Assembly: GCA_017499595.2 (NCBI GenBank)
Contig: CM039008.1
Location: 496,001-560,000 of the forward strand
DNA length: 64,000 nt
Reading direction: 5' to 3'
DNA from: Psilocybe cubensis
Taxonomy: Eukaryota
Shown here: piece by piece, positions 8,292 through 34,295 of the stretch
How the letters are laid out: the number at the start of each line of letters is the position of its first letter
Position numbering within the stretch: position 1 is the stretch's first letter
The notes under the pieces: generated by a model
Seen by the model: only the letters and a program-made list of their open reading frames with translations
What the model was told of the DNA's origin: nothing
The model's database searches: none
Program-made: the position numbers and the translations under genes

Positions 8292-8868
8292 GTGTTGTTC
8301 TTGAAGGTTTTCGCGTCTATGCCTGAGCAAGGTCGATAAATACGCCGTCCTCCTCGTTGCTTATAGTGAAAAAGTTAGACACTCGTGAGTCATACGCACC
8401 ATTGAATTTACGGTCGTGTGGCAATGCGAAGGGATTGGCACCCTGGCGGATTGGTTTTCCCAAATGATTTGCTGCCTCAAATAGAAATGCACTGGTTTAC
8501 ATACATGAATTGACAGCGATAAGTATGTATCGGCAGTTGACTTACCCTTCCATTGCTTCGAATCCCAAATAGACGCTCATTTGCATCATTCAATCATCTG
8601 GGAAAGTTAGTTTGGAAGGACCGAGGTTCGGATACGTCTCTCATCAGCAATACCGGGGCCAAGTAGGTAATGATCCGTAGTGATACGTAATTCTGTAGTG
8701 CCCATAGTAACGGTCCCATTTGGGTAACACACACTGATGTACCTGTAGCTTGGTACCAACGTGACATGGTACTCTGTAGTGATCTGTATTGTAACGCGAG
8801 TGCTGTGTAGCGGCGTGTAGCATGCTTACCATGGTCCATACCCCTCTGTATACAACTGACATACAAAT

Positions 8869-8939
8869 TGTAGCATACTACCACAGATTTGTAGCATGCT
8901 ACCACAGATTTGTAGCATGCTACCACAGATTTGTAGCAC
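8869..8939. repeat. 21-bp subterminal tandem repeat (TGTAGCATGCTACCACAGATT, ~3.4 copies)
   Basis: Units start at 8869, 8890, 8911 and 8932. The two central units contain the 12-bp palindrome GTAGCATGCTAC. Confidence 0.9.
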
Positions 8940-9206
8940 ATCATAACACACTGCAAATAGGTACAAAGGCATATATAGTATCCACTTTCATTTGTATAGT
9001 GTTGTGTGGCTATTCCTGCAAGTGCCAATATCACACTGAAAACCGAACCATTTTTGACTAAAATGGGCAATTTTAAAAATAGATAATCTATGTTTGGATC
9101 GGACCAAACATGTTTCTATTAGTAGATGCATAACTATTAATACGTGACGATCTAAATATGGTATCTTCTAATCCACACCCGGCAGCTGCCCCGCTCATTC
9201 ACCCAA

Positions 9207-11948
9207 CTACCCTTCTGGACCGTAATCTAGTTCCTCCTGTGGGATAGAATGGAGAGTCATCCTATAAGGGTTGGGGGGGTTCTTCGTAGGCCTCATAATA
9301 GCACTGATTATGGAGATCTAAATGATGCAAAGAAAGAAATGAATAAAAAAAGATACACACCATCCTTCCTCAGCCACTTCCCTACATAAGCGAGCCAAGC
9401 GAGGACCTTGGTTCAAGGTATCCTTCTCTGCCTCTGCTGCAACCAACATGCAGGCATCATACCTCAGGGAGTACTCCTCTCCCTTGAATTCAATACCCGA
9501 ACATGGACCACCTCTTGCAGGGTCAATCCCATCCCTCCACTCCTCAAGACAGTTGTGGATCTACAGCAAAATGCTTGTTAGCAAGGCAGTGCCAATAGCA
9601 GGAGAGAAATCAGAACTACACAACTGGCCACAAGCGCAAATGCTTTGTGGGGAAGCGATGTCTTGAAGAAATCCGTCTTTGTCTCCAGACCTTTGATGGG
9701 GACTGCAACCCCTTTTGTAGGATGGTAGAAGAAGTCCAGACAGATCTTCTTCACAAAAGGATGTCCAAATGGGACATCGTGATACTGGAAACAAATCAAT
9801 GAGTGGTAAGCCAGGTAAAATGGACGGCGAACTCACTCGGGTTTTGGCAACACCCCGGTGGTATTTACCATTGAGTAGCCAATATGCTACCCTGTCCTTG
9901 ATGTATTCGATCTCCCCCATCTGATTTTCAAACATATTGGGGTTCGCGGCGATGACCTCCGACGGGACTTCGAGGCCATACGCATTTTTGACCAGGGGTC
10001 TGATCATCGTCTTCAGTCTTCCCCGGAAGGTTGACGCGTAGACAAATGCCTAATGAGAACAGACACGTTAGTACGATATCCTTAAAAGAACACGCTAAAA
10101 ATATACCGTTACGGCGGTATTCCTGTCTAGGAGCGTTTTTTTCTCTGCAAAGTTATGTAAACCAATTAACTAAAATCACAGAAGACAGAACTTACTATCA
10201 GGCAACACTTTATCCGTGTTCATTCTTTCAAACACGGTTACTGCCATCTTCACACATCCATCGGCGACTAATAAGTGATTTTCCCGAGTGGGAAAGGGGA
10301 CCTCCTCTACTACATACAGGCACATCAGTTTGCGTGCAATTTTGAGCACATCTTTCCAGTAACCAGTAAAGGATGCAACTGAATGCTTGGATACTTCCCT
10401 AGCAGAAGAAGTACTGGACTTCTTATGAGCGATGTGTGCCTCACCAAGCACCTCATCATCGTCAGATGCTTCGTTGTTCTCCCTTGTCAAACCTTGGGAT
10501 ACGGCTCCTTGCGAAACAGCCGCCTTGCGCAATGCCTCAGGGCGAGGTGGCTTGTTCGCCCGATTACGACGACGGTGTTCTTGAAGAACATCCTCTACTT
10601 CCACAACCTATATCAATAATACATTAGCTAGACATTAAATACAGCAGAGAAATGATTACATGGGGGGAAGGCTGGCGGAGCAATGCCCTTGCTCTCCTCT
10701 CCTCTTCATCATCGGAAACTTCATCAACCACTGTCAAACATAGGTGGTAAGCAAACACGACATAAAGGTGGAGTTAAACCAACGCTGGGCAGCAGGCTCT
10801 TCATCATCTTGACCCGCGTCGTCGTAACCTTCATCACCGTCGACATATTGGAGAGCTTCTTCATCCCCAATATTCTCTTCATCAATTCCTTGCATGCATT
10901 CGTCCCCTGATGCTTCCTCAGATCGCCTTTCACCGTCACTATCCCCCTCTTCCTCCTCCTCATCTTCCTCCTGCTCTATGCCTTCGTAATCTTGTTGCTC
11001 CTCCTCGTCTTGATGGCTGATGCTAGCCTCTTGGTGGGCGTTATAGGCTGCTGGATGCACTGGCTGTTGTACGGGGGCATGTTGTGTTACAGGATGCACT
11101 GGTTGTTGTACGGGGGCATCGTAGTATTGGACAGAATTCTCTGCCGCAGGGGCAGCGTAACGCTGAACAGGATTTGCTGCGTGTTGTACAGGGCGCGGGA
11201 CAGGATGTGCTGCATGTTGTACGGGGCGCGGGACAGGATGTGCTGGCTGTTGTACCGGAGCAGCGGGGCGCTGGATGGGGGCAGTGGGTCTTTGGACAGC
11301 ATGATCAAGCTCTGAGTGCTCCTGATTTCTCTGAGCTGCACGTTGGATCTGGACAGGAGGGGGGGCACCCTGAGATTGTCGTGGGCTTGGTTGGACTTGT
11401 TGGACATCCCAAGGAGCAACTGAAGGCGTTGGCCTTGGTTGCATTTGAATAGGGGGACCTACATGCGACACAACGGTAACCTAGACGTGCTTGGAAGATA
11501 GCAAATTTAAGATTAGAACAGTAGACTCACCCCATTGCGAGGTTTCTTCAAGGGAGGCGCCATCTCATTTTCAGGCATGGCGCTAGTATCCACATTGGCG
11601 GCCCTTGACTTCCTCTTCCCAGCCTTCTCGAAGTCAATAAAAATGATGTTAGATGTTTTCTCCTGCCGAGCATTTACTCCACCAAGACCACGGGTGCTTC
11701 GGATAGGACGGCCATTGGGGTCTTTTTAATAAGGAGTTCAGTGAATCTCAACAAAGAAAATGCTAGTACAGACCTGCTTCAGGAGCCTGAGGTGGCTCGT
11801 TTTCTGCCACGGAGCTCGGACCCTGTTCAACCTCTTGTCCTAGATGGATAAAACATTAAGTATGCGGATGTAATGAGGATATATAGATGATACCTTCAAC
11901 CGTGGCATTGACAACCGCCTTTTTCTTTTTGGATCCTTTAGGTGGCAT
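9207..11948 (-). CDS. DUF6532-domain protein with basic N-terminus, P/Q/H-rich repeats and an acidic tract
   Basis: Starts MPPKGSKKKK (ATG 11948). ORF 10734-11471 has PVQQPAHP-like repeats and an E/D tract. C-terminal exons read PFGHPFVKKICLDFFY...LPHKAFALVASC...EEW...FKGEEYSLRY, matching the DUF6532 pattern. Exon limits approximate. Confidence 0.7.
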
Positions 11949-12219
11949 ATTGGGCTGGTTTGACGGTTGTAATGCAGAAATAGAGACAAGGGGTGGTGAA
12001 TTATGTCAAGCTACGATCCGGAGGTATGCGAAATTAGCATCTTTTCAAAATTTAAGGCGACGGACATCAGTCAAAAATATATCGTGCCATATAGAAATTA
12101 CAGGTACTGAAACAGTACCCCTATCTACTACAATATATCACATATACATTATAGTCAGATTCCATGTCCTACTTAGAGTTAAGTAAAGTTACATCTCAGA
12201 GGGGAAAAGACTGCACCTA

Positions 12220-15102: not shown

Positions 15103-15242
15103 TGTGGGTCTTAAAGACTGTTAATCGATGTTCATCTCACTTAATTTATCATCTTAACTTGTGATAATTTATTTTTAGATACTACACAACCTATTACTAT
15201 GATAAGACGCTATGATGAACGGAAAGAGAAAACATATGGTGA

Positions 15243-15443
15243 GAAACACGCTATTTCCGGAGCGATTCTTTAGGGTAGGTTTCCCGTCCTGAAGTCACGA
15301 GTTGGTTAAAAAAACGCCCCCTTACATCAGCCGCATCACCGTCACGGTGATGCGGCTGATGTAAGGGGGCGTTTTTTTAACCAACTCGTGACTTCAGGAC
15401 GGGAAACCTACCCTAAAGAATCGCTCCGGAAATAGCGTGTTTC
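15243..15443. repeat. Perfect 201-bp palindrome (100-bp arms, 1-nt spacer at 15343), with imperfect extension to 15207-15479
   Basis: 15243-15342 is the exact reverse complement of 15344-15443, checked base by base. Outer arms ACGCTATGATGAACGGAAAGAGAAAACA and ACGCTATGACGAACGGAAAGAAAAACA are diverged. Confidence 0.97.
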
Positions 15444-15768
15444 CAACTTGATTGTTTTTCTTTCCGTTCGTCATAGCGTAGTACCCCTCCCCATAGATTT
15501 AACATACATTCTAATAAAATAGACATAGACAATACTCTAGACACTCTATAATAGTTTTCGTTCAGTTAAAATTCATCTAGTTGAAAATTTGAGACACCAG
15601 AAAAAAACACACAAAAAAAAGTAAGTACCCAAAGAAATAGAATGCAGGGTGAGACGTTGAAGTTTTGTAGTGCAAGCCCAGAAGATTTCCCCCGTTGCCC
15701 GACTCCAAGCTGAAGAAATTCTGGCGTTTCCCTTCGAAACGCAGGTCGTTCGTCAGACTCTGGAAAAC

Positions 15769-18700
15769 ATGTTGCCAGAGTCGCACCCACTCCGCGTAGG
15801 TCTTAATTGGATTGCCATTTATGGTACTAATATCAAGTTTCTGTAGAGGATGGTGGATTTCCTCTGACGATATGAGGACTTCACCTTTTTGAATTACGAT
15901 GTTTCATCATCGAGCATGCGAGCGGCCATCAAGTATAGGCAAAGCTTGGCTGCCCTTCAGAACAGCATCGTAGAGACACCCTGCGTAACCTCGGCTACAT
16001 GGGAGCAGGCGGGTAGCTTATTTGCAGCATACCGTCTACTCGATCTCGTAGCGTTGTGGCCAGCAGCCTTTGGACCATCGTTGCCGGTAACCGTGCCCCT
16101 GAATGAAATACAGGCCAGCACAGGAACTAAGGAAATATTTTCACGGTTCAAGGTATGCGATCATGAAGTCACTCAATGTTAATTCTTAATTTTCAAACAA
16201 TTATTGTAGCTTGTAGATGACTTGAAGGACTGGCCGGCAATGCTCTGCTCTGCCAGGAAGCGCATCCTCAGAGCCGACTCTAAGTCGCACAGAAACATCA
16301 ACACCCCTTCTATCAGTGACACGCCGTCATCCGCTTTCACCCAGGGCGGGCCCTCGGAATCAACGCTATTACTCTGTCTGGCGCGTAACCACTTCAAGGG
16401 TGTTGTGGGGAAAATAATCGGGAATGTGTACTGCGCCTCGCTACACTACCAAATCTTGTCAGGAATGCGCGGTATGAAGGACGATGAACACGTTCTACCA
16501 GACATTCCAACGGACACGGCTACTCTTGCAAATCTCTAGTAAGTTTTCTTTCCTCTATTCATTGATACAATCTGCTCAACATACCCTAGTGCAAGCGGCC
16601 ATCCTGATGCTGCGTTGTTCCTCTCAGAGGTCACGCCATCTCATTTAAAAATTCCTCTGCATGTCGCCCTTTTCATATCCCCCATCCTTCTTTTTGTGAA
16701 TAAATCTTGGTATTCTAAGAAATGTGACCGGGAGCAGCTGCTTAAAGTAGGTGTATCCACATCCTCCCAGTTTAACTTGGATTAACGCACTCCTTTAGGC
16801 CTCAAAAGCGCTCGGTAATTGTCGCCCCCGTGTTCTGCGTGAAGTGGAGATGGAAATTTGGAAAATCATTGCAGCGCAAAATTGCGACATCCAGTCAGCC
16901 TTATATAAACTTGTTATCTCAGACTGCTGGATGGAATGCGAGCGGGTAATTGCACAAGATCCCGCGTTTCACTTTTTCATATGTGTGTTCTACGTACTGT
17001 AACAAAATAACAATTTAAACTAATAATTGGCCAGCGTCAACGAGCAGCGCCGAGGTTACAGCAAATTCTAACCTAGCAAGGCGCAGCACTGAACCACACG
17101 GTAAGTTATAAGCAAAGTCTGCGTCAATTACATGATTTAAATCCGTTTAAAACAGCTCAACTTCAGACCGTTTCCCATCATGGTGAAAAAACCACCTGTG
17201 AAGGGTCCGACGCAGACGCGGAGGGTGACGATGATCACGAAGTGGACACGACAGAAATGGTCAGCATGGGTCAACGGGAGAACGGGGACAATACGGTCCC
17301 TACCTCAAATATACAGCCTCCGGAAGACACGTCTTCAGTGGCTGGCAAGGATGTCAGCATGGGTCAACAGGAGAACGGGGACAATACGGTCCCTACCTCA
17401 GATATACAGCCTCCGGAAGACACATCTTCGGTGGCTGGCAAGGATGTGCCCACGGACGAGCAACCTGGTTTGCCGCGGAGTGATGATATTGGATCTGGTC
17501 TACTTCAGACTGAGAATACTGGGCCCTCATCTGCAGGGGATTGTGAGATGAACGTCGATCCGGAGCAAGCTGATGTCGACCATCAAATGGAGGATGGTCC
17601 ACATACCAATGGTCCAGAAAATTTGGGAGATGGCGGGGCTGGACAAGGAGCTGAAGGGTCTTCTGACGAGGCAAATCGTATGTCGGAAGTTCACGAGGGC
17701 GAAAAGCAGGGGCAAGACGGAGAACGACCCGACGAGGAGAACCGAATGTCAGAAGATGGTGAGGAGGAAAGGCCAGACGACAGTTCGTCGGACAATGAGA
17801 CCGAGAAGCAGGGGCAAGGGGATGTTCCACCAGTCCAGGAGGACAGAATGTCGGTCGATGGAGAGGGGGTAGGCCCAGAGCAAAACAATGATTCCTCAGA
17901 CATGGAGAGGAATACATTGGAAGACAGCCAAGGCGAAAAGGAGGGGGAGAACGCACCTCCTGCTCCTCTTATTTTGAGGATTCCTCCTGTTTCCCAGATA
18001 AACAGGAGCAAAAACACCACGGCTGACTCCTCTCAGAAAGGGAAAGGGAAGGGCCGGCAGGGCCTTTCCAAGCGGCCTCCCAAACGCAAGCCGACGCAGG
18101 CTACCGACACATTTGATTCGGACGACGACCTGTGTATTGATGTCGATCTGTACGACAGCAACACCACCCTTGATGTCGTCAGCACTCCGGAGAAGGTGTA
18201 TGGCACCAAAGTTTGGTCCACCTACAACGGTCGTGGCCAACTTAAAAGTTTCTGCGTTGTTGCCCATGTAAGTCATTCTCGATATTGATTTTTTCGTCAT
18301 TTATTTATTCTCCAAACAAGAGTCAAGCCGACGTGGATCGTGTTGAAAGGGTTCTGGAATTGGTCGAGAGTGACTACGTCGATGGAGTTCCATTGCACAT
18401 AGCACGTCCCGAAGAATCATGTTTTGCGGTATTCGACCGCAGCACCACGAAATCCATGTATCTGATGGAGTCTTTCTCTGAAAGGAACGTCGTCCTTATG
18501 TCTCCTTCTCAAGAGGAGTCTATTTCAACTTGCTCCGACGAGTTCTACAGCCAGGTACGTCGCCATATGGGTGATATGACGAGCACCAGGTCAATCCAAG
18601 GTGTGTTTCCTCTTCGATGTTTTGATTTTTCTTTCTGCGTCTCATGCTAATGGCCGTAACAGATATGTCGACCATGTCGTCTAACCCCATCGAGAGGATT

Positions 18701-20332
18701 AAGCGTGGGTCCCTCTCTCAGGTCATGGAAGCAGCGAGGATGAAAGGCAAAAGAGGAAAGATCCTCAATGCCCTCGACATCCCTTTACCTCATGCAGGCG
18801 CTCACTCTTTTGACTTGAGTACTGAGGCGGCTGCTCTTCGGGCTACATCTGGTAGCTGGAAGTATAGTACCCCCGTCCCATTTGGTGATATGTCATGGGG
18901 ACTCGTAGCTACAGAGGGGGCATTTTCAGATATCCATATCGATGCCAATGGTTTCTGTTCCTTCATCCAACCTCTTCATGGACTGAAGCTGTGGATTATC
19001 ATGTATCCCAGACGGTTGGATGTTGACCTTTCTTCTGACCGCCGTGTATTTCTGGGAGACAAGCTGGATTACGGGGAAACGCACCACCAAGACTGGATTT
19101 ACGAGGCGATTGTTCTCGATAACCAGTCAGAACTGTATGTGATTTTTGAATGTCCTACCCATTTGATTATATTGACGCTACTTTGAAAAACAGCTTCATG
19201 AGACCGAATACTCTACATATGGCGTATTCTATCTCCTCAGTGGTTTGCCGTGGCGGACATTTTTACTCCTCCACTTCCTTCGAAGAAACCCTGACAGGAA
19301 TCATTCACTGTTTTACCGCTGGATACAGGGCAACGAATACGAATCATTCAACGTCCCGATTTTTCCTGCAGCAAACCATACATTGGTTCTACAAGGTTTT
19401 GGTTGAAGGTGACAGCGACCCAGAAGGTATGAGGTTTTTTACCGTTTCCTACAAGATATCTGATTCTTTTCTTCTATTTTCTCTCAGATTTTTATGAAAT
19501 GTACCATGTCCCATTCTACAGTACGCAGTCCGGATACTCGAGCTTGATAGCTCTGTGCGTGTGCATGATCTTGGCAAATGCGCTCGACTACGAGACCTAT
19601 CGAAATCCCGATCAGATGTTCTCCACCAAGACTTCGGCACAGTTAGACGCATGGATGCGGTGGGATACCAACAGCCTGAGCGACGAAGAGCGCAAGGCGT
19701 GCATCTTTGCCCGTGGCGAAGCCTTGGCTATTCTAGAGTGGCTATGTCATCGCACGAAGTCCATCCACTACATGATTGAGACGGACAAAAACAAGGATGC
19801 ACAAAATATCATGGCGACAGAAAAGTTCCATGAAATGATACTTTGCCGCTATGCCCGTATGATTCTAGCCTACGACGCAGAAGCCAAACATAACAACATT
19901 GGTGGTGCCCCTTGCTGTACCGACACCAGTTTGCTTTTTGTCCAGCTTCAGGGCGTCTGCAGCGGAGAATTGAACAAGGTTATATGTCGCAGTATCGACC
20001 AGCTTCCTCGTTCCTCGGTCCCAAAGATGCTCAAGTTACCCGTAATCACTCTCATTGACTGTGATGCCTGTGCGGATTCCTCAACGCAATTGAGTAGGTG
20101 GACCAGTGTCTGCCTTTGGATATTCACTAACCACGTCACAAACTAGGAACTCCCAAGGAGATTCTGGAACTTGGTACGAGTGTGAGGGATAAACTGTATC
20201 TGGATGGCATGAAAGTCAAGCTGGAGAGCACAAATCCGAGTACGTGTGTTCGATTATGCCTTTACGTCGCAAATGCTTATCTCTTCATCAGAATCAGAGT
20301 CTGTTCCGCCTTCTAAACGACGGCGACTTTGA
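15769..20332 (+). CDS. Large multi-exon JmjC-like Fe(II)/2-oxoglutarate dioxygenase; 5' end uncertain, possibly disrupted
   Basis: WGLVATEGAFSDIHIDANG...GLKLW (HxD plus Lys) in ORF 18644-19186, and FMRPNTLHMAY...GGHFY (distal His) in ORF 19150-19497. Upstream acidic low-complexity exon 17242-18270. Ends PPSKRRRL*. In-frame TGA at 15865 in the predicted second exon. The N-terminal exons could be a separate gene. Confidence 0.7.
17260..17447 (+). repeat. 93-bp (31-aa) coding tandem duplication
   Basis: VSMGQxENGDNTVPTSxIQPPEDTSSVAGKD twice, starting at 17260 and 17353. Confidence 0.95.
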
Positions 20333-22652: not shown

Positions 22653-23102
22653 TGTCAGGGCAACACTATAATCAGTGTGACAAGGCCACCAACAAAGATT
22701 AAGCAAGAGAGAGAAAGAGAGAGCAGAGGGAGAGTAAGAGAGCAAAGAGAGAATAAGAGAGTGAGAGAGATTCAATGGTTCTAAGAGATCACACCAATGA
22801 TAGTGGATATCCTAAGAGATTGAAGCTGAAGCTACAGCTACCTACAAGTCCAGTATTTATACTCTACAGCTATTCTAGAATATTCCCTACATTACATCAT
22901 AAAGGAAGGTTAAAGAATAAAAGTGACATCATATAGAAAAAGGATGAGTAAGACTAGGAATCATATAGAATTTACTAGAAAGAAGTGGAGCAAGAAGGCT
23001 GTGATGAAAGAAATAAACTATCTAATCAGATAATTGATAAGATAATGAAAGAATAAGATAATTCTGTGAAGATAAAGAGGGGAAACTGGAGAAACCCTGA
23101 CA
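22653..23102 (-). repeat. 3' LTR
   Basis: Identical by eye to 28615-29064. Confidence 0.97.
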
Positions 23103-26100
23103 TCACCCCCTCTCTAAGGCACATTTTCCACAATGTGCACATGGATGGGTTAGTTTAGAGGGTTTAAGAAGAGGAGGAGGTTCAGTAAAGTTAATAATAG
23201 GAGTGAAAGAAAGTCTATCAAAGGTCACAGCAGAAATCCTTCTAGGTGCTGAAGGATGTTTGGCATGGAAGTCCTTGATAGCCTTAGAAGCATTTTTCAA
23301 ATGCTCTGCAGGCTCCCAAGTGCATTCTTCATTAGGATAGTTCTTCCACTTGACCAAATATTGAAGTTTGTTTCTAAAAAGTCTGCTGTCCTTGATAAAT
23401 TCAACTTCCCACTCAGGATTTTCTCCTTGAATGACAGGAGGTGGTCTAGAAGGAGGCTTTCTTCCTACAATATCTGGGTGATAAGGTAGAAGTTTAACCA
23501 CATTGAACACTGGATGGATTTTCATGGTAGATGGCAGCTTAAGCTCATAGGCATTAGGGCTAATAACTTTGGTAATTTTGTAAGGCCCATATCTTTTATC
23601 ATCCAATTTCTTGGAGGGCCTATCAGTTTTGAGGTCCTTGCCATCTAACCATACCAAATCCCCAACTTTGTACTGAGTTGGAGTACCTCTGTGTCTATTA
23701 TAGAATTTAGCCATATCATCAGCAGCTTTTCTAAGTGCAGACTCTGCTTCTTTCCTGGCTTCTTCCATATTTTTCACAAAGGTATCCACAGTGTCCATTT
23801 TACTATCTCTAAGGGGTTCAGTGCCCATTCTGGGATGTCTGCCATTATTGAGCATGAATGGTGTCTGCCTGGTTGAAGCCTGAACTCTATTGTTATAAGA
23901 GAATTCAGCTAGAGCTAACCATTCAACCCAATCATCTTGTCTATGGTTTATAAAGAGTCTAAGATACTGCTCAATTTCTTGGTTAACTCTTTCAGTCTGA
24001 CCATCAGTTTGGGGATGGTAGGCTGTAGATGAGGCTGTCTGGATACCAAGTATTGAGTTGAGTTCTTTCATAAACCTTGAGACAAACTGTGGACCTCTAT
24101 CACACAGAATTTTAATGGGTAAGCCATGGTGTTTCCAGACATAATCTCTGTATAGTCTGGCTGTCCCTTCAGAAGTGACTTCATCTGTAGTAGGGATAAT
24201 GTGGATCATTTTACTAAGTCTATCCACAACCACCATAATGGCATTATACCCTTGACATTCTGGTAACCCCATAATAAAGTCCACAGAGATGCATTGCCAG
24301 ACATCAGAGGGAATCTCAGTAGGAATTAAAAGGCCAAGAGGTTTGGCTGGAAAGGTTTTGGTTCTGTTGCATCTATCACAACCTCTGGTATAGGCTGCAA
24401 TAAAATGTGACATTCCTGGCCACCAATAATTCCTAGAGACTAGCTCAATTGTCTTCCATTTCCCTGGATGTCCAGCAATGAAGGCATCATGGTGCAGTTC
24501 CACAATCTTTCTTCTAAGATCTTTGTCTTTGGGAACATACACCTTCCCCCTGTAGAGAATAAGGCCTTGTTCTTCTGACCATTCCTGTCCTTCAATCTTC
24601 TTGGTAGAAGATTTCTTGAGCTCCTGAACTGCCTTGACCACCTTTTCATCCATCTCCTTAGCTTCTCTAATCTTCTTAAGAAGATCATTTTCTGCACCAG
24701 TAATGGTAGCATGACCCTGCTTGAGAGCCTGGATTTTAAAGTAGGAAGGTTTGAGGAGAACTACATTTTGGTTATCATTTTCTCCCTTTTTATGATCTGG
24801 TCTCCTAGACAAAGCATCTGGCTTAAGAGATCTTTTACCAGGCCTATGATGAAGAGTAAAATCAAATCTGGACAGGAAGAGTGACCATCTGGCTTGCCTT
24901 CTGCTGAGCTTTTGGGCAACCATAAAGTACTCTAAGTTTTTGTGGTCTGTCCAAATCTCAAAGGAATGTTGGGTTCCTTCAAGATAATGTCTCCATTCAT
25001 CTAGTGCTCTGATAATAGCCAGCATCTCTTTGTCATGGATCTCATAATTCCTTTCTACTTCAGATAGACTCTTAGACATAAAGGCTACAGGATGCCATTT
25101 CCCATCTGATCCTTCCTGAGATAAAACAGCCCCAGTAGCATAATCTGAACTGTCTGCTTCAACTTTATATGGCTTGTTATCATCAGGGAAAATCAAGACA
25201 GGTGAAGAAGTGACTTTCTTCTTTAACTGGTCAAAGGCTTCCTGCTGTCTAAGACTCCATCTCCAGACTGTTCCTTTCTTTGTCAATTCATGAAGGGGCT
25301 TAGCAATGTCTGCAAAATCCTCTATGAACCTTCTATAAAAATTAACAAATCCCAAGAATGATTGGACATCCTTGACATTTTCAGGTTCAGGCCATTTAGA
25401 AACTCCCTCTACCTTGACAGGATCCATCTCAATCCTGCCTTGTGAAATGATTAGTCCAAGATATTCAATCTTTTCCTTTTCAAATTCACATTTCTCTGCT
25501 TTAAGGTAGAGTTTGTTCTGTTCTAGGATTTGCAGAACTTGCTTGACTACCTCTCTATGATGATCAAGAGTCTCAGTGAAAATTAAAATGTCATCCATGT
25601 AGACAATGACAACATTTCCATCAATGAGCTCAATAAAGATATCATTCATCATAGTTTGGAAGGTAGCAGGACTATTGGTTAAACCAAAGAACATGACCAA
25701 TGGTTCAAACAGCCCTCTATTGGTTCTAAAGGCTGCTTTCCATTCATCTCCCTTTTTGATTCTGACATTGTTAAATCCCCACCTAACATCAAGTTTGGTG
25801 AAGTATTTGGCTTTGCTGAGTTTGGTGATGATGTCAGAAATCAATGGAAGGGGGTAGGAGTTCTTGATGGTCATTTCATTCAGTTTCCTATAGTCCTGGA
25901 CAAGCCTAAGAGATCCATCCTTCTTCTTGACAAAGAATACAGGGGAGGCCATAGGTGACTTGGAGGGTCTAATCCTGCCAGACTTCAGATTTTCCTCTAA
26001 AAAGGCATCAAGTTCCTTTTGTTCATTGGGAGAAAGAGGATAAATCTTGGATCTGTAAGGTTCAGAACCAGGTTTCAGCTCAATAGCATGATCCCAAGGC

Positions 26101-26984
26101 TTTCTGTCTGGTAGCCTATCAAAAGATTCCTTTGAAAAAACACCTTTAAACTGATGATAGTGCTTAGGAACAGTTTCTTCAAAGGTTTTCTTAGGGGAAT
26201 CAGCTTGCTGATGAGACTCTTCTGCTAATCTTTGAGACATAGTAGAAGTAGCATTAATAGACTGCTTCTGAGGATGAAGGTATGAGATAAAAATTCTATC
26301 CTCAGGCTCAATCTCAGAATCAGAAGAATCTTCAATAGAATCATCTTCTTCTTCATCAAATTGAGGGAGTTTCCTCCTTTTGACTGCAGCTATTCTCTGC
26401 CTCTTTCTTCTGGCTCTTTTGGCTTCCATTTGGCAGTCAGAGGGACATCTAATAAACTGGACATCCCCTGTCTTCCAATCAACATCTGGATTATGGTGCC
26501 AAAGCCAAGTATGTCCAATGATAGCAGATTTGTCTCCCAAGTCACAAACAGCAAAGGTGGCCCTTTCTGTATGGTTCTTGTGTACCATAATTAAGTCTAC
26601 TTCCTCATGGATAGAGCCACTCTTGTTGAGAGTACCATCAACATTATAGACTGGAATGGCTCTAGGAAGTTTCCTTGTGTTGAGATTATGATACTTCACA
26701 AAACCAGAATGCAGAAAGAGGCCAGTAGCTCCAGAATCAAGTAAAGCATCAACAGATAACCTTTTCTCTGTGTCCATTGTCTTTAAGATGACAGACAAAT
26801 GGGTAGAGGTTTTAGGATTATGGTTGAGGATGTAGATCTTTTCAGGGAAGGTAGAAAGAGAGGAAGAAGAAGACATGATTTCTGCACCAGAATCTGAAGA
26901 CTGAGGATCAAGTCTGTCAATTTCATTTTCTAGTACATTAAATCTATTCCATTGGGACATGTCTTTCACCAATGGTGCTTCTAA
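23103..26984 (-). CDS. pol: Pol polyprotein: protease, RT, RNase H, integrase, chromodomain (reached by a -1 frameshift from gag)
   Basis: LLDSGA protease; YMDD RT; ADSSD...NYEIHDKEMLAI RNase H; HH-CC zinc finger, SVDFI, CDRG and GQTER integrase with GPY motif; chromodomain WEVEFI...YLVKWKNY...TWEP. Stop codon abuts the 3' LTR. Confidence 0.97.
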   Translation of the reverse strand, partial: LEAPLVKDMSQWNRFNVLENEIDRLDPQSSDSGAEIMSSSSSLSTFPEKIYILNHNPKTSTHLSVILKTMDTEKRLSVDALLDSGATGLFLHSGFVKYHNLNTRKLPRAIPVYNVDGTLNKSGSIHEEVDLIMVHKNHTERATFAVCDLGDKSAIIGHTWLWHHNPDVDWKTGDVQFIRCPSDCQMEAKRARRKRQRIAAVKRRKLPQFDEEEDDSIEDSSDSEIEPEDRIFISYLHPQKQSINATSTMSQRLAEESHQQADSPKKTFEETVPKHYHQFKGVFSKESFDRLPDRKPWDHAIELKPGSEPYRSKIYPLSPNEQKELDAFLEENLKSGRIRPSKSPMASPVFFVKKKDGSLRLVQDYRKLNEMTIKNSYPLPLISDIITKLSKAKYFTKLDVRWGFNNVRIKKGDEWKAAFRTNRGLFEPLVMFFGLTNSPATFQTMMNDIFIELIDGNVVIVYMDDILIFTETLDHHREVVKQVLQILEQNKLYLKAEKCEFEKEKIEYLGLIISQGRIEMDPVKVEGVSKWPEPENVKDVQSFLGFVNFYRRFIEDFADIAKPLHELTKKGTVWRWSLRQQEAFDQLKKKVTSSPVLIFPDDNKPYKVEADSSDYATGAVLSQEGSDGKWHPVAFMSKSLSEVERNYEIHDKEMLAIIRALDEWRHYLEGTQHSFEIWTDHKNLEYFMVAQKLSRRQARWSLFLSRFDFTLHHRPGKRSLKPDALSRRPDHKKGENDNQNVVLLKPSYFKIQALKQGHATITGAENDLLKKIREAKEMDEKVVKAVQELKKSSTKKIEGQEWSEEQGLILYRGKVYVPKDKDLRRKIVELHHDAFIAGHPGKWKTIELVSRNYWWPGMSHFIAAYTRGCDRCNRTKTFPAKPLGLLIPTEIPSDVWQCISVDFIMGLPECQGYNAIMVVVDRLSKMIHIIPTTDEVTSEGTARLYRDYVWKHHGLPIKILCDRGPQFVSRFMKELNSILGIQTASSTAYHPQTDGQTERVNQEIEQYLRLFINHRQDDWVEWLALAEFSYNNRVQASTRQTPFMLNNGRHPRMGTEPLRDSKMDTVDTFVKNMEEARKEAESALRKAADDMAKFYNRHRGTPTQYKVGDLVWLDGKDLKTDRPSKKLDDKRYGPYKITKVISPNAYELKLPSTMKIHPVFNVVKLLPYHPDIVGRKPPSRPPPVIQGENPEWEVEFIKDSRLFRNKLQYLVKWKNYPNEECTWEPAEHLKNASKAIKDFHAKHPSAPRRISAVTFDRLSFTPIINFTEPPPLLKPSKLTHPCAHCGKCALERG

Positions 26985-28108
26985 AAATTTTTCTTTTCCT
27001 CATCTTTCTGCTCCTTGCCTTCCAAGATTAATTTCCCAAAGTAGTCAGCCAGTTCTTCATGGGTCATAGCATTGATGTTAACTGATGACCTGCAGTTTAC
27101 AGCCTTATGACCAGGCTTTCTGCACTTGAAGCAAACAATTGGCCTAACTGACTTCCATCCAGAGTCAACCTCCATGGGAACTACATCTGGTTGCTTTGCC
27201 TGAGCACCAAAGGTCCTTGAGCTGCTGTTGGAAAAGACTGGAGGATTTGGAGTAGGCTTAGGAACAGCCTTGGGAGTTGGGGCTTTAAGGAAGGGAGAAG
27301 AAGAGGAGGAGGAAAGAGACTTGGTAAAGGCCTCACTCTGTCTCCACTGCCTATCTAGCCTAGTACTCCATTTAATCCATCCATCCAAGGTTTTGGGCAT
27401 GTCAGGAACATAGTAGACTGCATTCCTAAGATTTTCATTAAGCCCAGCCTTGAATTGGTCTACCAAAGCAGCATCATTATACCCAGTATCTGAGATCAGA
27501 GCCCTGAAGCTAGCAACATACTCATCAGCAGTCTGTCTGCCTTGCTTGAGCATGTGCATTTTATGCTTAGCTGTGTTGGAGGGGTCTGGATCTGCAAACA
27601 CTTCCCTAAATTCATAAACAAAGTCAGCCCAAAGACCTTCTTGGGACTGAGCATTGTCTATTACTTTAGTCTTCTCATATGCCCACTTCCCAGCAGTACC
27701 TCCTTTCATATGAGATAGAGCACAAATAACTTTCTGAAAGTCATCTGTAATCCCTTTCCCATAGAAATATAATTTAAGCTGACTGAGGAAGTTTTCTGCC
27801 TTCTCCATAGAACCATCAAATGGATCTGGAGGTGAGACTTTAATGGCAGAGTGTGAACAGGAAGGGGCAACATGAGGGGTAGGGAAAGAGTGAATATCTA
27901 GAGCAGCAGGTGGTGGTGGTGGTGGTGGTGGTGGTGGTGGTGGTGGTGATGGTGACTGACTGACTGGTTGCTGAGGGTGTGGTGGAGTGGATAATGACTG
28001 CTGCTGCTGTCTAAGAAAATTTAACTCTTGGGTAAGGAGCTGGACCTGATGCATGAGCTCTTCCACAGAAGGAGTGGTGGGAGGCAATTGGGAGGGGTCC
28101 ATGTCCAT
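26981..28108 (-). CDS. gag: Gag protein
   Basis: 375 aa with a poly-Pro tract, PDPFDG, LKQG...ADEYVASF capsid motif, VPMEVD and CFKCRKPGHKAVNC zinc knuckle. Confidence 0.95.
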   Translation of the reverse strand: MDMDPSQLPPTTPSVEELMHQVQLLTQELNFLRQQQQSLSTPPHPQQPVSQSPSPPPPPPPPPPPPPAALDIHSFPTPHVAPSCSHSAIKVSPPDPFDGSMEKAENFLSQLKLYFYGKGITDDFQKVICALSHMKGGTAGKWAYEKTKVIDNAQSQEGLWADFVYEFREVFADPDPSNTAKHKMHMLKQGRQTADEYVASFRALISDTGYNDAALVDQFKAGLNENLRNAVYYVPDMPKTLDGWIKWSTRLDRQWRQSEAFTKSLSSSSSSPFLKAPTPKAVPKPTPNPPVFSNSSSRTFGAQAKQPDVVPMEVDSGWKSVRPIVCFKCRKPGHKAVNCRSSVNINAMTHEELADYFGKLILEGKEQKDEEKKNF

Positions 28109-28601
28109 GGGTAGGGGTAGGTAGGCTCTCTGATGTGTGTGTGGGAGAAGCTATCTACTGAAAGTGCCCTTGAAACTATACTAAGTATTCTAAAAAAAAA
28201 TATCTATCTACTGGATACCCAGTTGTCACACCACTCAGGGCTCTAAACCTAGGATCACAGGGTTACTGGATATTTCCTAGACCACCAAAAACAGAACACT
28301 AGTAGGACTGTGTCTGCCCCAACAGTTGGTATCCCTATCTACTAAGTTCACACACAGCACACAACAGAGAGTAGGAAAGATGATGAGCCAAAGGTCTTGA
28401 GGAAAGGTCTTGAGGAAAGGTTTTGAGGAGGATGTTGAAGATTGGTGGAGATGTAGAGATTGGTAAGAAGATTGGTGAAGAGGTTGATGAAGAGGTTGGT
28501 GGATTGGAAGTGGAGGAAGAAGGTTGAGGTGATGGTGTTGAAGAGGTTGAAGAGGTGAAGAGTTTGGTGTTGAAAGAGAGATGGTGGAGTTGTCTTGAGA
28601 G

Positions 28602-28612
28602 AGCTTCAATCT
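28602..28612 (-). promoter_or_regulatory. Primer-binding site complementary to the element's own predicted transcript 5' end
   Basis: Minus-strand AGATTGAAGCT lies 2 nt after the 5' LTR. It is complementary to minus-strand AGCTTCAATCT at 28789-28779, which is 26 nt downstream of TATAAATA (28823-28816). Confidence 0.75.
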
Positions 28613-28614
28613 TC

Positions 28615-29064
28615 TGTCAGGGCAACACTATAATCAGTGTGACAAGGCCACCAACAAAGATTAAGCAAGAGAGAGAAAGAGAGAGCAGAGGGAGAGTAAG
28701 AGAGCAAAGAGAGAATAAGAGAGTGAGAGAGATTCAATGGTTCTAAGAGATCACACCAATGATAGTGGATATCCTAAGAGATTGAAGCTGAAGCTACAGC
28801 TACCTACAAGTCCAGTATTTATACTCTACAGCTATTCTAGAATATTCCCTACATTACATCATAAAGGAAGGTTAAAGAATAAAAGTGACATCATATAGAA
28901 AAAGGATGAGTAAGACTAGGAATCATATAGAATTTACTAGAAAGAAGTGGAGCAAGAAGGCTGTGATGAAAGAAATAAACTATCTAATCAGATAATTGAT
29001 AAGATAATGAAAGAATAAGATAATTCTGTGAAGATAAAGAGGGGAAACTGGAGAAACCCTGACA
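28615..29064 (-). repeat. 5' LTR
   Basis: 450 bp; TATA box at 28816-28823 on the minus strand. Confidence 0.97.
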
Positions 29065-30572
29065 CTCGCACAATCTCAAACAATCTCCGAGGCAATGTGT
29101 CTCAGAATTGAGCAGGCACTGCAAGATTTCCATGCCAATAAACAAGCCATCCTTGACGCGGGAGCACGTCGAGGTAAAAAAAACAACCCAATCGATAATT
29201 TCTATATTCCAAAACTCGAGTTTTTGCAAAGTGTAGTACACGCAATTAGACTAAATGGATGTGCAATCCAATGGTCTGCAGACACGACAGAGCATGCACA
29301 TATCGAGGTGGTCAAAGCCCCTTCCAGTTCCAGCAATAATCAAAGATACGAGCCTCAAGTTTGTCGATACCTTGATCGTCGTGACAAATTGCGCAATTTC
29401 GATTTGTTTACAGCTATACGAGAAATGAGGATTGATTTTCGGGCTATACACTCTGCAACAATTACGGATGAGGAGGAGCAGGAGGAGGGGGATGAGGGGG
29501 AGGAAAACGGCGAGGTTGTGATGGACACAACGTCAGAACTTCTTTCAACAATCATGCCGATGACAACCTTTCAATCAGCAAAGTCCAATCGCATTGTGGA
29601 TTACTTCTACAAAGCTAGTCTCTATGAGCGTGGCGTATTGGAAGGCCCAGTCCCCTACAGAACATTTTCTTGCAGCAAAAACGTTGTTGCCCATTTATCT
29701 AGGGATGCTAGTTCCAAAAGATTGCATATCGACGAGGTTGCGAGCATTTTTAAAATTCCCGACCTACGACCAGCAATTGCCGATTATGTGTCACTCATCA
29801 ATAAGGAATCAAATCCGAGACAGACCAATTCTCGAGGTTATCACATCAAGGGGATAACTGGCAGGCGTGTTTCTCCTCCCGGTTGTCCGTTGCCGTATTC
29901 AAAACTTGAGGTATGGCATAAGGTCCGTATACAGTCGACTGCGTACCAATACCCTCATGAGATCCTGGAGGCAGTCACACTTAATGCATATCCGCCATCT
30001 AACAAACATCCTTTTGGATACTTCGATTCAGCAATCATAAACGTGGATGAATCTGAGGAGTGGCCTCGCAGCGGGCTTCAAGGTAGTACTTCTTTGTGAC
30101 TTTTTTCCGAACCCCGTTGACCAGCCAATATTGTAGGCCATTCTGTCGTCGACATTCGTATTATTTTTCGCATTGTCGGAGAGACACCCAGTACTGTGTC
30201 TCCCGATATTACTGGAAGATTTCTCGCATACGTCCAACGTTTTGAGGTTTTAAATCAGCCACAGTCTCTAGGTTCTGCGATCCGTGGACCTTACCCAGAG
30301 CCAATAACCGGCATGTATAAATTAAAACAAAGTCAACGTACAGATAACACCATTATGGGTGGAATTTTACCATTGAATCAAATACGCTCCCTGGTTGATC
30401 TGGTCCCTCAGATGGGCGAGAAGGCAAGGCGAAGCCTTACTACACATAACAGTCATTCCACTAGCACCGAGTTCCGATTAAACAAATATTTTGACAAAGA
30501 ACTCTATTTGGCCCTGTCATCATAACATATCCACCTCAGGAAACCCACAAAGTTTTCAATCCCTAATGCACA

Positions 30573-31077: not shown

Positions 31078-32209
31078 CTCTCTCCCACAATCCATACCTG
31101 CCATGCCTCTGTATCATTACCTACTGAATACCCCTCCATCCGTCTCATTTCTGCAGAATCAAGTTGTTCTCACTCATCTATTCCACCCACCACTGCGCAA
31201 ATTCCAAAGGATTCTTCCCAGAGCGCCTCTTCTTCTAAACAAAAATTTTTTTCAAGGCTTGCCGGTCCGTCCTGTCCTCAATTAGCGCCCACCTTGCCGG
31301 AGATACTCACTTTATTTTTTAAATTCCATTGCAGATCAAGCTGTCAGCACCTTGTCCGAGATCTGGCACCCTCAGGATATTCCTTCCGTGTTCCTACCCC
31401 CCGCCAAAGTAGGGGGTAGCTCTTTTCCTCCTACTCATTCCCGTCCAACTTCCAAGCAGATCTCTTCCGATTTGCAATCCATAGCGTCTCATACACATCC
31501 AATACATCCACACAACAGTCATCCCTCCGTATCCGGCCATAACCCTTCCCCGACCCTCTTGCTTGCCTCGGGCACCAAATCCGATCAGATATTACCCCTC
31601 AAGTCTTTTGTTTATAAAGTCCTTCGCCACTCAAGGACATCTAAAAACGTACTGCAGATAGCACTATGTTATCTAGAATCCATTCGTCCCAAGGTCCCAC
31701 AGATTTTGCAAGAGGAAAACATCGGCATTCGCTCTTATGCTCAGCCCAAAAGCAGTATTCAGAAAGCTACCCCAGAAGAGCTGGCGATGGATGCTGAGCT
31801 TACTGCTCTTGAGAACTCCGGCAAGATCAACATCATCAATAATTTCATTGACAATTCTATGCAAACATTCCGTGTTGCCGATTCTGGTTCACAAGATCTG
31901 GCTGAATCGTGCATCTATCCACAAGACTCTCTGTCCAGCGTAGATGTGCAGGTCTCAACGGCTCCTCTTTCCACCACCCTTTCTTTGCCATCTCCCCTCC
32001 TGTGTCCCCGTAGAGCCTTTCTGGCATCCCTCATCCTGGCCTCCAAATTTTCACAAGAAAAGTGTTATTCTAACCGTGCTTGGGCAAGGTTATCTGGTCT
32101 CCCACCTCGTGAAATTGGTCGCTGCGAACGTGCCCTCGCACAAGCCTTGCAATGGCGACTCTGGGTCGGCAAATGCGCCTTTGGTGAGAGTGCTGCAACT
32201 GCCACATAG
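31018..32209 (+). CDS. Pcl/Clg1-type (PHO80-like) cyclin; start uncertain
   Basis: PLKSFVYKVLRHSRTSKNVLQIALCYLESIR and LPSPLLCPRRAFLASLILASKFSQEKCYSNRAWARLSGLPPREIGRCERALAQALQWRLWV form the cyclin box. Intron 31265-31334 joins SRLA|DQAVSTLSEIW. Confidence 0.85.
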
Positions 32210-32453
32210 TCTCAATAAGTTTCAACTTTCACGACCGCGCCATGTAGTACGCATTCTCAATAATCACTCTTTTGCTTGCCACCACTACGCGCGCTCCTCC
32301 CGCATTCAGTTAGATAGGCATCTTCTTAGACTAGCCTAGAAAAATCTATAGAACTTTGTTTTACGTATACAGAACCCCTGAAGAATTTTTATACCCGCGA
32401 AGTTTGTTTTCAGCTTGAATTCCAACTACGACAAAGTGAGCGTATCACACACC

Positions 32454-33004
32454 ATGCAAATCATCAGCTATGAGGAAATTTTACGAATCGAAGCAGAAGT
32501 ATTGGCCCCTACTTTCCCAGATCTAATACATCCTACAACTTTCCCAGAGGCCGCCTCACTTGCTTCTCAAAGACAGCAATACGACTTGGAAATGGCTCAG
32601 TTAGTTGAGCAGACCCAAAAAATGGTCCTTTTGACCGAGAACAGGCTGATACTGGCCATCCTGGCCCTTTTCAACGAAATTAACTGGACCACCCTGGACC
32701 CAAGGTTACTATCGTTGGCTAAAGCCAAGATTACCGAGGGTGACCAGTGGCTCAAAGCACGAGCCGTGAGTTTTCTGTTTCTTCAAGTTTCAAGTTGATA
32801 CTCTTGCTTAAGATAACTAGGAGGAGACACTTCGGGATGCAGACTCAGGCAGCCCCGAGCACATATTGACCCAAGGGATGTCCATTATAGCCAACGGCCA
32901 GATTCATATTCGAACGGTAGAGGTGAGTCACAGTGATAACTACTTTGTTTCTACACTTTCTTAGTAATGGGCAGGATCTCATACGAGAATGTCAGGATCA
33001 TTAA
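32454..33004 (+). CDS. Small three-exon hypothetical helical protein
   Basis: MQIISYEEILRIEAE...WLKARA, then GTGAGT..AG, EETLRDAD...RTVE, GTGAGT..CAG, DLIRECQDH*. The introns keep the frame. Confidence 0.6.
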
Positions 33005-34295
33005 TAGGGTCAAGATACTACATTGTAAATAGACACTTAATTGCCTTTAAAAATGTACATTTTATTGCTTGATATGATTGAAGAGCTTTACTGAGACCAA
33101 TCACATTGGACATCAAACTCTCCTAAGTCTGGAATCGTACATAGAGATAGCTAGGAAAATCCAAAGCTCGCAGTAGTAATGTTGGAATGCTACAGAGCTC
33201 AACGGAGCATCCCGCCGATGACACATGACGCTATACTGTCTACAGCCCACTTTGATGCTACATCCGGTTGGCAGGACAATACGTTGAGTTACCTCCGAAA
33301 ATCCGGATTTACTGATGCTGACGGATTCCCTGTGAATAGAAACTCAATAGACATGTAATTGGGTGCTATTTGCATGTTTAGAGCTGCGCCAATACGCACC
33401 TACACTTCCGAGTAGCATTGTGGCGGCCAGTCGAAACGAGAACTTTTTGAAAGTTGACGCCCCTTTTCAATTCTTGAGTCATCTTAAGTATGCCAAATGA
33501 AAGTGCTCCCTGCTAAGGGTTGAGGATAATCTGCGCAGTGCAGGTGCAGTGCATTGTTGATGGTTGATAGGCAAACGAGAAAAACCTTCTGTAGGACCTA
33601 GGACATCCTTCACCTTTGTTCTTCTTTAGTTTCCTCCAGGTTCCTGAAATGGCCCTTTGGAGAAGAATTGGATCACGCCTCGGACATCCGGATGCACCCC
33701 AGTGAAGTCATAAAGGTTTCCTTTGGTACAATGATCTCGCTCTGGGCAATTTCGGATGAACTTTCTTACTATGTCTCTCTGTATAAATTGTGCGTCAATG
33801 AGAAGCAGTCGACTCTTTCCCCCTTGCTCTCCGTAACAAATCCTCCCCAATAACGAGAACACCTCTAGTTCTCTTGCGACAGTGGCTGGACGTGTTGAAA
33901 AAAGCTCCAGGAAACGAGATAATACGACTCAGATTTTTCTTTCATCAAGTCGAGTATGGGCAGCGGCTTGTGGAAGTGGCTCTCTTCTGCATTCTTAGCC
34001 ATGACAAACGGGACACGAGGATTTCAAGGAGGTTACATCCCTTTAATCGGGAGCCCTCATTGTTTTGAGTCGGTACAGCTCATTCATCGTCTTTCTTTTC
34101 AGCATACAATGACATCTAAAATGCAGTGCAAAATGAGGAACGATCGACGGCAAACTCTCAAGTCTGACGGGAAGAAAAATTTTCGGCGTCCGTGTTCTTT
34201 GTGTCAAGGCTCCCGAGTCAAGCGTCGTCATCTTTAATCATGATATAAAAAGCCGTGAGGAAGAAACGGAGGGCACTGTTCTCCTTCCTCTAAAA

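Follow-up and report, generated by a model that had tools for sequence, protein, structure and literature searches.

A multi-copy PlavakaB transposon of Psilocybe cubensis with JmjC-like and Spt5-like accessory genes

The window analysed here, a stretch of 64,000 nucleotides (nt) of contig CM039008.1 of the mushroom Psilocybe cubensis (GenBank assembly GCA_017499595.2), contains between its positions 8642 and 33317 one PlavakaB DNA transposon, which spans 24,676 base pairs (bp) when the long terminal repeat (LTR) retrotransposon nested in it is included. We take it to be, very probably, a copy of a multi-copy and recently active cut-and-paste element endowed with a fixed set of accessory genes: a DUF6532-like gene, a paralogue of Spt5, a JmjC gene, the transposase, a cyclin of the PHO80/Pas1 type and a small open reading frame (ORF) would follow one another in this order. 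The original prediction, made from the letters of the sequence without database searches, had proposed a giant Plavaka transposon at these very coordinates, and they are confirmed, on the left by sequencing reads and on the right by features of the sequence. It had put the size without the retroelement at about 18 kb, and 18,259 bp is what we compute once the nested element and one copy of its 5-bp duplication have been taken away. The epithet 'giant' holds in part: among fungal DNA transposons 18 kb is a large size, yet the Starships are larger, as are the Plavaka-flanked repeats of Amoebidium, which reach 50 kb (PMC11244446).

Termini and copies of the element

The element is bounded as 5'-CATCAG..CTGATG-3'. 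Its left end starts with CATCAGCAATACCGG at 8642, its right end closes with ..CCGGATTTACTGATG at 33317, and the reverse complement of the latter, CATCAGTAAATCCGG, agrees with the left end at 12 of the 15 terminal bases. Directly outside both termini stands the dinucleotide CT, a 2-bp target site duplication (TSD), an agreement that chance would produce in 1/16 of cases. The termini of PlavakaB families have been described as 5'-CATCA..TGATG-3', with duplications of 2 or 3 bp (PMC12730594, section 3.2.2), and it is because of the exact fit to these published ends that we assign both termini and TSD to PlavakaB. The pentamer TGTAG occurs 9 times in 8633-8932, as compared with 59 times on the same strand across the whole window, and its inverted form CTACA 4 times in 32941-33240, as compared with 68; a 21-bp tandem repeat of 3.4 copies (8868-8938) lies inside the left field. 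The inverted terminal and subterminal motifs that had been announced are present, the TGTAG and CTACA fields occupying opposite ends of the element. By analogy with En/Spm, these arrays may be seen as putative binding sites of the transposase.

The copies can be followed in four public sequencing runs (X1, X5, X7 and X13), aligned to positions 4001-24000 of the window at 80% likeness. X13 consists of raw reads from an independent strain, sequenced in another study than the likely source of the window. Per direction, X13 reaches a depth of about 39-65 in the 7 bins of the flank (4001-8669) and of 216-321 in the 21 bins that cover 8670-22676; this rise of about 5-fold holds evenly from the DUF6532-like gene through the Spt5-like and JmjC-like genes to the transposase. 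The word depth of contigs goes from 84.9 in the flank to 202.4 in the element in X1 and from 36-42 to 581-806 in X5, and the copy number relative to the flank varies by run (about 2.4x, 5x and 16x). The left-hand cargo genes, which the original prediction took to be mobile rather than single-copy, are multi-copy by the depths of X13, X1 and X5. Just to the left of 8642, 372 X13 reads and 2 X5 contigs run out into sequences that are unlike one another (consensus agreement 0.39), a variety such as one expects from many insertion sites. Since a contig of 6364 nt (8909-15272), found in both X1 and X5, shows only 4 differences from the window, the copies have to be considered as very young. The site before insertion is predicted to read ..GATACGTCT-CT-GACGGATTCCC..; no empty site was directly seen in the read and contig data over 4001-24000. 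One X5 contig (record 9) displays 167 nt beyond 8641 that do not fit the element and may correspond to such a site, and we do not count it as evidence.

The transposase was recognized by Pfam as had been anticipated, with PF18759 on two exons (1.1e-16 and 1.1e-64) and DUF6830 at 1e-45. In the window copy its gene has been split by a young Ty3/chromovirus element, the two LTRs of which (22652-23102 and 28614-29064) do not differ at any of their 451 nt; this retrotransposon is flanked by a 5-bp TSD, CTCGC, at 22648-22652 and 29065-29069, and its gag (26984-28150) and pol (23106-26999, a frame of 1298 amino acids, aa) are both open and intact. Beyond 22652, 364 X13 reads (agreement 0.99), together with one contig each in X1 and X5, run into window 29070-29099, and because 22652 joins 29070 in this way, most copies must be without the LTR insert and keep their transposase gene uninterrupted. 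Coordinate arithmetic shows the frame to be continuous across 22652/29070 once the LTR element is removed, and this is confirmed by P0159, an intact sister protein of 996 aa (PF18759 2.6e-85, DUF6830 1e-46) that maps to window 20963-21352, 21406-22668 and 29065-30522 and, when 119 Plavaka transposases are aligned, keeps 57 of the 59 D/E/H/C/K/R/W columns that are highly conserved. The window copy is disabled in cis while retaining both termini, and it can move only with transposase supplied by intact sister copies.

Other variations were witnessed among the copies. The transposase gene has a form in which 129 nt are replaced by 8 nt at 21074-21204 (X5, X7 and X13) and another in which 1374 nt are deleted at 21084-22459 (27 X13 reads); these forms may be non-autonomous derivatives. 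The nested chromovirus is itself present in high copy number, X13 depth reaching about 1500-1600 per direction over the LTR, around 30x the flank, and junctions like that of 9164 with 22652 (18 reads) point to a further chromovirus copy within a further Plavaka copy.

Annotated gene models extend the picture to the right-hand side. The closest annotated proteins to the window exons are all named Psilocybe cubensis, with 91-100% identity over the exons. One of the corresponding clusters at 90% identity, that of P0160, has 39 members, all with this species name; the 15 listed members, which we inspected, match the window exons at 92-100% amino-acid identity and sit on contigs of 8 different lengths. 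Many models in the cluster are fused genes, thereby recording gene order: 10 of the 15 listed begin with the JmjC N-terminus, 6 go on across the transposase and take in the cyclin, and 1 (P0288) also takes in the ORF 32412-32922, the recurring order being JmjC, transposase, cyclin, ORF. The Spt5-like model P0297 (603 aa) belongs to a contig equal in length to one of the P0160-cluster contigs, and matches the window at 95-100% over the main exons and 85-89% over the N-terminal exons. The fused models cover the right-hand cargo beyond the reach of the reads, leaving 395 bp up to the right terminus. That the element is one mobile unit, as had been proposed, is strongly supported by the family-specific termini with their TSD, the step in depth, the varied flanks at 8642 and the conservation of gene order on chromosome-scale contigs of 8 different lengths.

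The accessory genes

Where seven genes had been predicted we count six to seven (Table 1): five have annotated homologous models, a sixth corresponds to a weak DUF6532 match and the seventh is a doubtful small ORF. The JmjC-like gene encodes a large protein with a conserved N-terminal region, an acidic low-complexity region and then a JmjC domain resembling those of KDM2/7 and PHF8. A 93-nt tandem duplication (17260-17445, 96% alike) lies in the acidic region and, being in frame, yields two 31-aa repeats. One exon (18626-19183) carries HIDANG..GLKLW and the next (19195-19425) RPNTLH. Pfam, its JmjC and Cupin models included, proposed no family for the window exons (E<=1) nor for 8 long relatives (E<=0.01). 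A search of 1.84 billion representatives retrieved relatives in 462 clusters at 50% identity (E<=1e-3); of the approximately 150 best relatives, 145 retain the H, 140 the D, 142 the K and 142 the W, and H251 is nearly invariant in the alignment of relatives, A1. Compared with the PDB, a profile of 34 relatives matched ceKDM7A at 1.1e-7, and KDM2A, PHF8 and KDM7 at 1e-4 to 1e-3, the window motifs HID, GLKLW and RPNTLH being aligned to H-V-D, G-E-K and H-A-V of ceKDM7A and KDM2A. An AlphaFold2 model was made of P0079, a 545-aa homologue from Galerina and not the window protein (pLDDT 87.5, pTM 0.90); Foldseek placed PHF8, ceKDM7A, KDM7A, KDM2A and PHF2 as its best matches (E 4.5e-11 to 1e-9, TM 0.41-0.62). 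As judged from profile and modelled fold, the view stands that the window protein belongs to a divergent KDM2/7-like JmjC family that Pfam does not model. The JmjC label given beforehand is borne out by the profile against the PDB and by the fold search, where Pfam sees nothing. The H-x-D...K...H centre is intact in the window copy; these residues are the predicted ligands of the metal and of 2-oxoglutarate (2OG), and the demethylase activity is putative.

The Spt5-like protein displays an acidic N-terminus, an NGN domain and at least two KOW domains, with no match past the KOW region. In Pfam, its 287-aa exon scores at 4.3e-5 for Spt5-NGN, 9.4e-8 for KOW and 1.2e-13 for KOW2_Spt5, the PDB Spt5 chains match at E about 1e-10, and this combination of NGN and KOW upholds the Spt5-like label of the original prediction. 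The domains of P0297 fall at residues 130-197 (NGN), 329-357 and 378-411 (KOW), and the annotated gene JR316_0004106 is 99% identical to the window sequence. Searches with the Spt5-like exon returned no match among longer proteins and, among proteins of near length, only the P. cubensis protein itself. Its length of about 600 aa has to be set against the 812-1122 residues of the solved Spt5 chains, and the approximately 1000 aa of full Spt5, with 5-7 KOW domains and C-terminal repeats; the gene would be a shortened paralogue, the absence of the C-terminal repeats being suggested by the length and by the lack of matches past the KOW region. It is not isolated, as short KOW1_SPT5/NGN proteins make up many clusters in Atlas, most often from Basidiomycota. 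A near-perfect palindrome separates the Spt5-like gene from the JmjC-like gene, which points the other way; reads pile up or break there, with small deletions at 15336 and 15372.

The remaining cargo is less clear-cut. The cyclin-like gene reaches 4.9e-3 for PF08613 (17.7 bits for a cut-off of 21) and 3.2e-3 for PF00134 in Pfam, its ORF found no match in the PDB with phmmer, the best clusters in the Atlas feature search are 91-100% PF08613 (scores 0.91-0.93), and the source annotation names the fused models 'G1/S-specific cyclin pas1'. Of the 'CDK-activating cyclin' previously put forward (CDK, cyclin-dependent kinase), the cyclin part finds moderate support in the PHO80-type clusters and in the pas1 name, but the matches are weak and stay below the Pfam cut-off. 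A partial internal duplication precedes this gene (30680-30964 versus 31113-31399, and 30969-31058 versus 31617-31706). For DUF6532 (PF20149), the match that had been reported is retrieved in one exon only, over profile positions 55-101 of 194, but at 23.2 bits it remains under the cut-off of 24, a weak support; the neighbouring exons have no Pfam match, no annotated homologue was retrieved for the gene region, and a Pro/Gln-rich, acidic ORF (10737-11480) lies within it. The small ORF at the right end matches no Pfam family above cut-off. Finally, no TET/JBP match was found among the scanned ORFs of the element (most of at least 90 aa, a few shorter; E<=0.01 to 1), in line with what had been noticed at first sight; TET/JBP of the 'PE type' are invisible to sequence profiles (PMC12730594), and one could still hide in the unassigned ORFs.

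Table 1. Features of the PlavakaB element, in window coordinates
Feature	Position	Strand	Basis or remark
Left TSD copy, CT	8640..8641		sequence comparison; 2-3 bp TSDs published for PlavakaB (PMC12730594)
Left terminus CATCAGCAATACCGG and subterminal repeat field	8642..8940	+	9 TGTAG, tandem repeat, depth step and loose ends at 8642
DUF6532-like gene region (approximate limits)	9318..11725	-	Pfam E 7.2e-5, ORFs, multi-copy depth
Spt5-like gene, about 600 aa	12746..15102	-	Pfam, PDB Spt5 chains, exon map, JR316_0004106
Near-perfect palindrome, 136-nt arms, 93% complementary, 1-nt spacer	15207..15479		in the intergenic region of the divergent Spt5-like/JmjC-like gene pair
JmjC-like gene, about 1290-1350 aa, at least 9 exons	15769..20265	+	profile, fold, exon map; HID in exon 18653-19141
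Plavaka transposase, 5' part (N-terminal region, PF18759), cut by the LTR insertion	20963..22652	+	Pfam 1.1e-64; P0159 mapping
Nested Ty3/chromovirus LTR retrotransposon	22653..29064	-	identical LTRs, gag, pol, 5-bp TSD
Plavaka transposase, 3' part (DUF6830, C-terminus)	29070..30522	+	Pfam DUF6830 1e-45
PHO80/Pas1-type cyclin-like gene	31319..32206	+	sub-cut-off Pfam, Atlas clusters, fused-model names
Small ORF or gene with 2 exons, the rightmost coding feature of the element	32412..32922	+	99-100% to P0288 residues 2510-2661
Right subterminal field, 4 CTACA, and right terminus ..CCGGATTTACTGATG	32941..33317	-	sequence features
Right TSD copy, CT	33318..33319		sequence comparison

Working cargo or passengers

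The accessory proteins may act on the chromatin and the transcription of the element itself, and we put this forward tentatively, from the identities of their domains. The part of the JmjC protein would be to erase or counteract repressive methylation of histones, in the manner of Epe1 in fission yeast; that of the Spt5 paralogue would be to assist elongation along this long unit; and the two genes, transcribed divergently from the palindrome-bearing region (273 bp), would keep the element transcribed. Such a kit would answer, at the level of histones and elongation, to the TET/JBP genes carried by other Plavaka and KDZ transposons.

How general this association may be was explored in metagenomes, where a scan with a narrower JmjC alignment, A2, yielded 80 loci, totalling 537,640 nt; 27 of them extend 3 kb or more past the JmjC gene on its downstream side, where the transposase lies in the window. 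A Plavaka ORF was found in none of the 80, using tblastn and a hidden Markov model of the 119 transposases that does recover the window exons; the co-occurrence with Plavaka that the original prediction proposed to tabulate is, for the JmjC family, absent from this sample. Three of the 80 loci have an Spt5-like NGN/KOW gene a few kb at most from the JmjC-like one. They amount to two distinct sequences, two of the loci (L002 and L023) being 99.9% alike, and the Spt5-like/JmjC-like neighbour pairs belong to two unrelated lineages, with 28-37% identity. There are hints here that the pair may be a module picked up by this Plavaka lineage. In loci of at least 6 kb no recurrent neighbour of JmjC was found except its own exons and the Spt5-like ORF, and among 20 neighbouring ORFs in the metagenome loci only a DEAD helicase, DUF6535 and the Spt5-like protein could be identified. 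A DUF6535 gene also adjoins the left side of the element in the window (6429-7833, minus strand), and a DUF6535 ORF lies about 7 kb from the JmjC-like gene in one locus (L039, 8976-10343); this proximity is probably a coincidence between two expanded basidiomycete families.

The accessory genes might alternatively be passengers of no use to the element, whole or partial host genes that it captured, as in Pack-MULEs and many CACTA elements, and that spread only via the recent multiplication of the element, which we consider possible, if doubtful. Such an origin would agree with copies that are near-identical (4 differences in 6364 nt) without sign of selection on the cargo, with the partial internal duplication in the cyclin region, with gene models that are messy and fused, with the absence of Plavaka from all 80 metagenome loci of the JmjC family, and with the fate of a paralogue: P0002 (members P0153 and P0154) stands for a second JmjC-like lineage of the same species, 63% identical and known from at least two models on different contigs, which has lost HxD. 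Against capture of mere passengers one must set the fact that the cargo is long, multi-exon and open (603 aa for the Spt5-like protein, about 1300 aa for JmjC), that the metal and 2OG residues of JmjC are intact here and conserved across about 150 relatives, that in two unrelated metagenome lineages the Spt5-like gene again lies next to the JmjC-like one, hinting at a functional pair, and that three of the genes have chromatin or transcription as their predicted target, in common with the TET/JBP genes found in related transposons (PMC12730594). A bolder variant of the working cargo would see in it an element-borne escape kit, made of an Epe1-like JmjC protein, an RfaH-like dedicated Spt5 and a palindromic promoter, the Spt5-like/JmjC pair forming a portable module that exists also outside Plavaka, in other fungi; we regard this as unlikely.

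Several observations weigh against the account of the element that we prefer. As for its limits, 4 of the 6415 CATCA/TGATG pairs of the window pass the combined test of at least 12 matches in 15 and a 2-bp duplication, and the test of the terminal pair is weak when taken alone, since three other pairs pass it too. The right terminus, 33317, would be defined by the terminal inverted repeat, the TSD and the motifs, with no read coverage there; homology had been expected to stop at both ends, and on the left it does, with the depth step and the loose ends at 8642, whereas on the right colinearity with another copy reaches only 32922, 395 bp short of the terminus. X1 may be the source of the window, hence not independent. 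As for the cargo, the cyclin and DUF6532 matches are below the Pfam cut-offs, the P0002 lineage has ARISPNG in place of HxD and may be non-catalytic, the JmjC family had to be rejected as a standard Plavaka gene given the 0 of 80 metagenome loci, the anti-silencing role is one that we purely infer, and the copies, being near-identical, are silent on selection for the cargo. To this must be added an unexplained 16-mer, CATCAGTACATCCGGA, at 3437-3452 (plus strand), which matches the reverse complement of the right terminus at 15 of 16 positions.

This last sequence has the orientation of a left end, 5.2 kb upstream of the real one, with neither TSD partner nor TGTAG repeats, and may be the lone end of an older or related element. 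A larger unit beginning at 3437, for which 8642 would be internal, is extremely improbable and was rejected: the single mismatch makes a better terminal match than the 12 of 15 at 8642, but the region 4001-8669 is single-copy, depth rises only from the bin beginning at 8670, loose ends gather at 8642, no 2- or 3-bp TSD is common to 3437 and 33317, and no TGTAG repeats come after 3437. Equally hard to credit is that a cluster of host genes, with a transposase by chance among them, was copied by segmental duplication, which multi-copy depth and colinearity alone would fit, but which is at odds with a boundary placed exactly at family-specific termini with a TSD, with the many flanks at 8642 (agreement 0.39, 372 reads), with copies on contigs of 8 different lengths and with a copy number that varies by run (about 2.4x, 5x and 16x).

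The window holds a few further features of this kind. A weaker terminus-like 16-mer (52316-52331, plus strand), with 2 mismatches, lies beside the second-highest TGTAG cluster of the window (3 in 300 nt, 52044-52343), which adjoins a carboxylesterase gene; this site may be a remnant end. The left flank is structurally polymorphic over 4001-6000, with X5 depth at about 0-7 over 4001-6001 and loose ends beyond 5364 (246 X13 reads, agreement 0.95) and before 5322 (X1); the 5364 breakpoint was rejected as a transposon end, as there is no TGATG there. At the very start of the window, 46-772 is an array of direct repeats, with 6-7 copies of units of about 100-140 nt that are 60-90% alike.

Related systems and meaning of the finding

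Plant elements of the En/Spm (CACTA) type have short terminal inverted repeats, TSDs of 2-3 bp, subterminal repeat arrays and a frequent tendency to capture genes, and are often multi-gene elements of 8-20 kb. The P. cubensis element resembles them by the clade of its transposase, the type of its termini and TSD, its subterminal arrays and its several genes; it differs by ends that read CATCA instead of CACTA and by chromatin and transcription factors in place of a DNA-binding protein of the TnpA type. En/Spm and PlavakaB are both covered by the CMCT clade (PMC12730594). The nearest relatives are the PlavakaB elements of Agaricomycetes, including the TET/JBP families of Agaricus bisporus and Gymnopus confluens (Kojima 2025, PMC12730594), with the same transposase, termini and TSD, likewise hosts among the Agaricales and likewise a gene for a chromatin-modifying enzyme as cargo. 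The cargo there is TET/JBP, for which an anti-silencing role has been proposed (PMC12730594), whereas here it is JmjC, an Spt5 paralogue, a cyclin and a DUF6532-like gene. The main text of that study, as far as it was available to us, makes no mention of JmjC, Spt5, KOW or cyclin, and its supplementary families may hold similar elements. That fungal DNA transposons carry chromatin modifiers is already known, and the novelty would lie in this cargo set.

Bacteria possess paralogues of NusG/Spt5 (RfaH, ActX, TraB and LoaP) that serve horizontally acquired operons or plasmids. As in those systems, an additional NGN-KOW factor is found here beside a long, foreign and silencing-prone gene set, which suggests that the Spt5 paralogue might be an elongation factor dedicated to the element; the bacterial factors are recruited by ops-like DNA signals, and the likeness is one of analogy only. 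In Arabidopsis, the Mutator-like element VANDAL21 (Hiun) encodes VANC, a protein that undoes the silencing of its own copies; VANC differs in that it is a sequence-specific DNA-binding protein, unrelated to JmjC or Spt5. Epe1 of Schizosaccharomyces pombe, a JmjC anti-silencing factor that opposes heterochromatin marked by methylation of lysine 9 of histone H3 (H3K9me) (PMC7192584, PMC6317313, PMC6576747), offers a plausible working model for the JmjC protein of the element, including a non-enzymatic mode, given that P0002 is without HxD. It differs as a single-copy host gene, and the likeness to KDM2/7/PHF8 was drawn here from PDB chains and not from Epe1. Amoebidium has Plavaka-flanked 'giant repeats' of up to 50 kb, as well as KDM4-like JmjC genes in endogenised giant viruses (PMC11244446). 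There too, Plavaka stands beside large multi-gene repeats and mobile or viral DNA has JmjC demethylase-like genes; the host is different, the genes are KDM4-like and not KDM2/7-like, JmjC resides in the viral insertions and the repeats come without described termini, in so far as that source covers them. In the literature we found no description of this cargo set, as the original prediction had supposed, JmjC and Plavaka being met together only for Amoebidium (PMC11244446); nor was there anything relevant on P. cubensis transposons, on Spt5 paralogues or on Spt5 with a transposase in Agaricomycetes, and DUF6532 appeared only in a domain census.

A member of a transposon family known to carry TET/JBP can, as this element shows, carry another kit, one that points at histone marks and at elongation by RNA polymerase II, where the TET/JBP cargo is presumably meant for escape from methylation-based silencing. 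Young, multi-copy, varying in copy number between strains and present as both intact and disrupted copies, the element makes a tractable system in a cultivable mushroom, and it provides a genomic context for the large JmjC-like family of Agaricomycetes (462 clusters) as well as for the short Spt5-like proteins of Basidiomycota. Should its cargo counter silencing, this would bear on the way large DNA transposons stay active despite defences based on 5-methylcytosine and H3K9me. And if the reading as an escape kit were true, we would have before us the first eukaryotic transposon with a private factor of the NusG/Spt5 family, a counterpart at the histone level to the transposon-borne TET/JBP.

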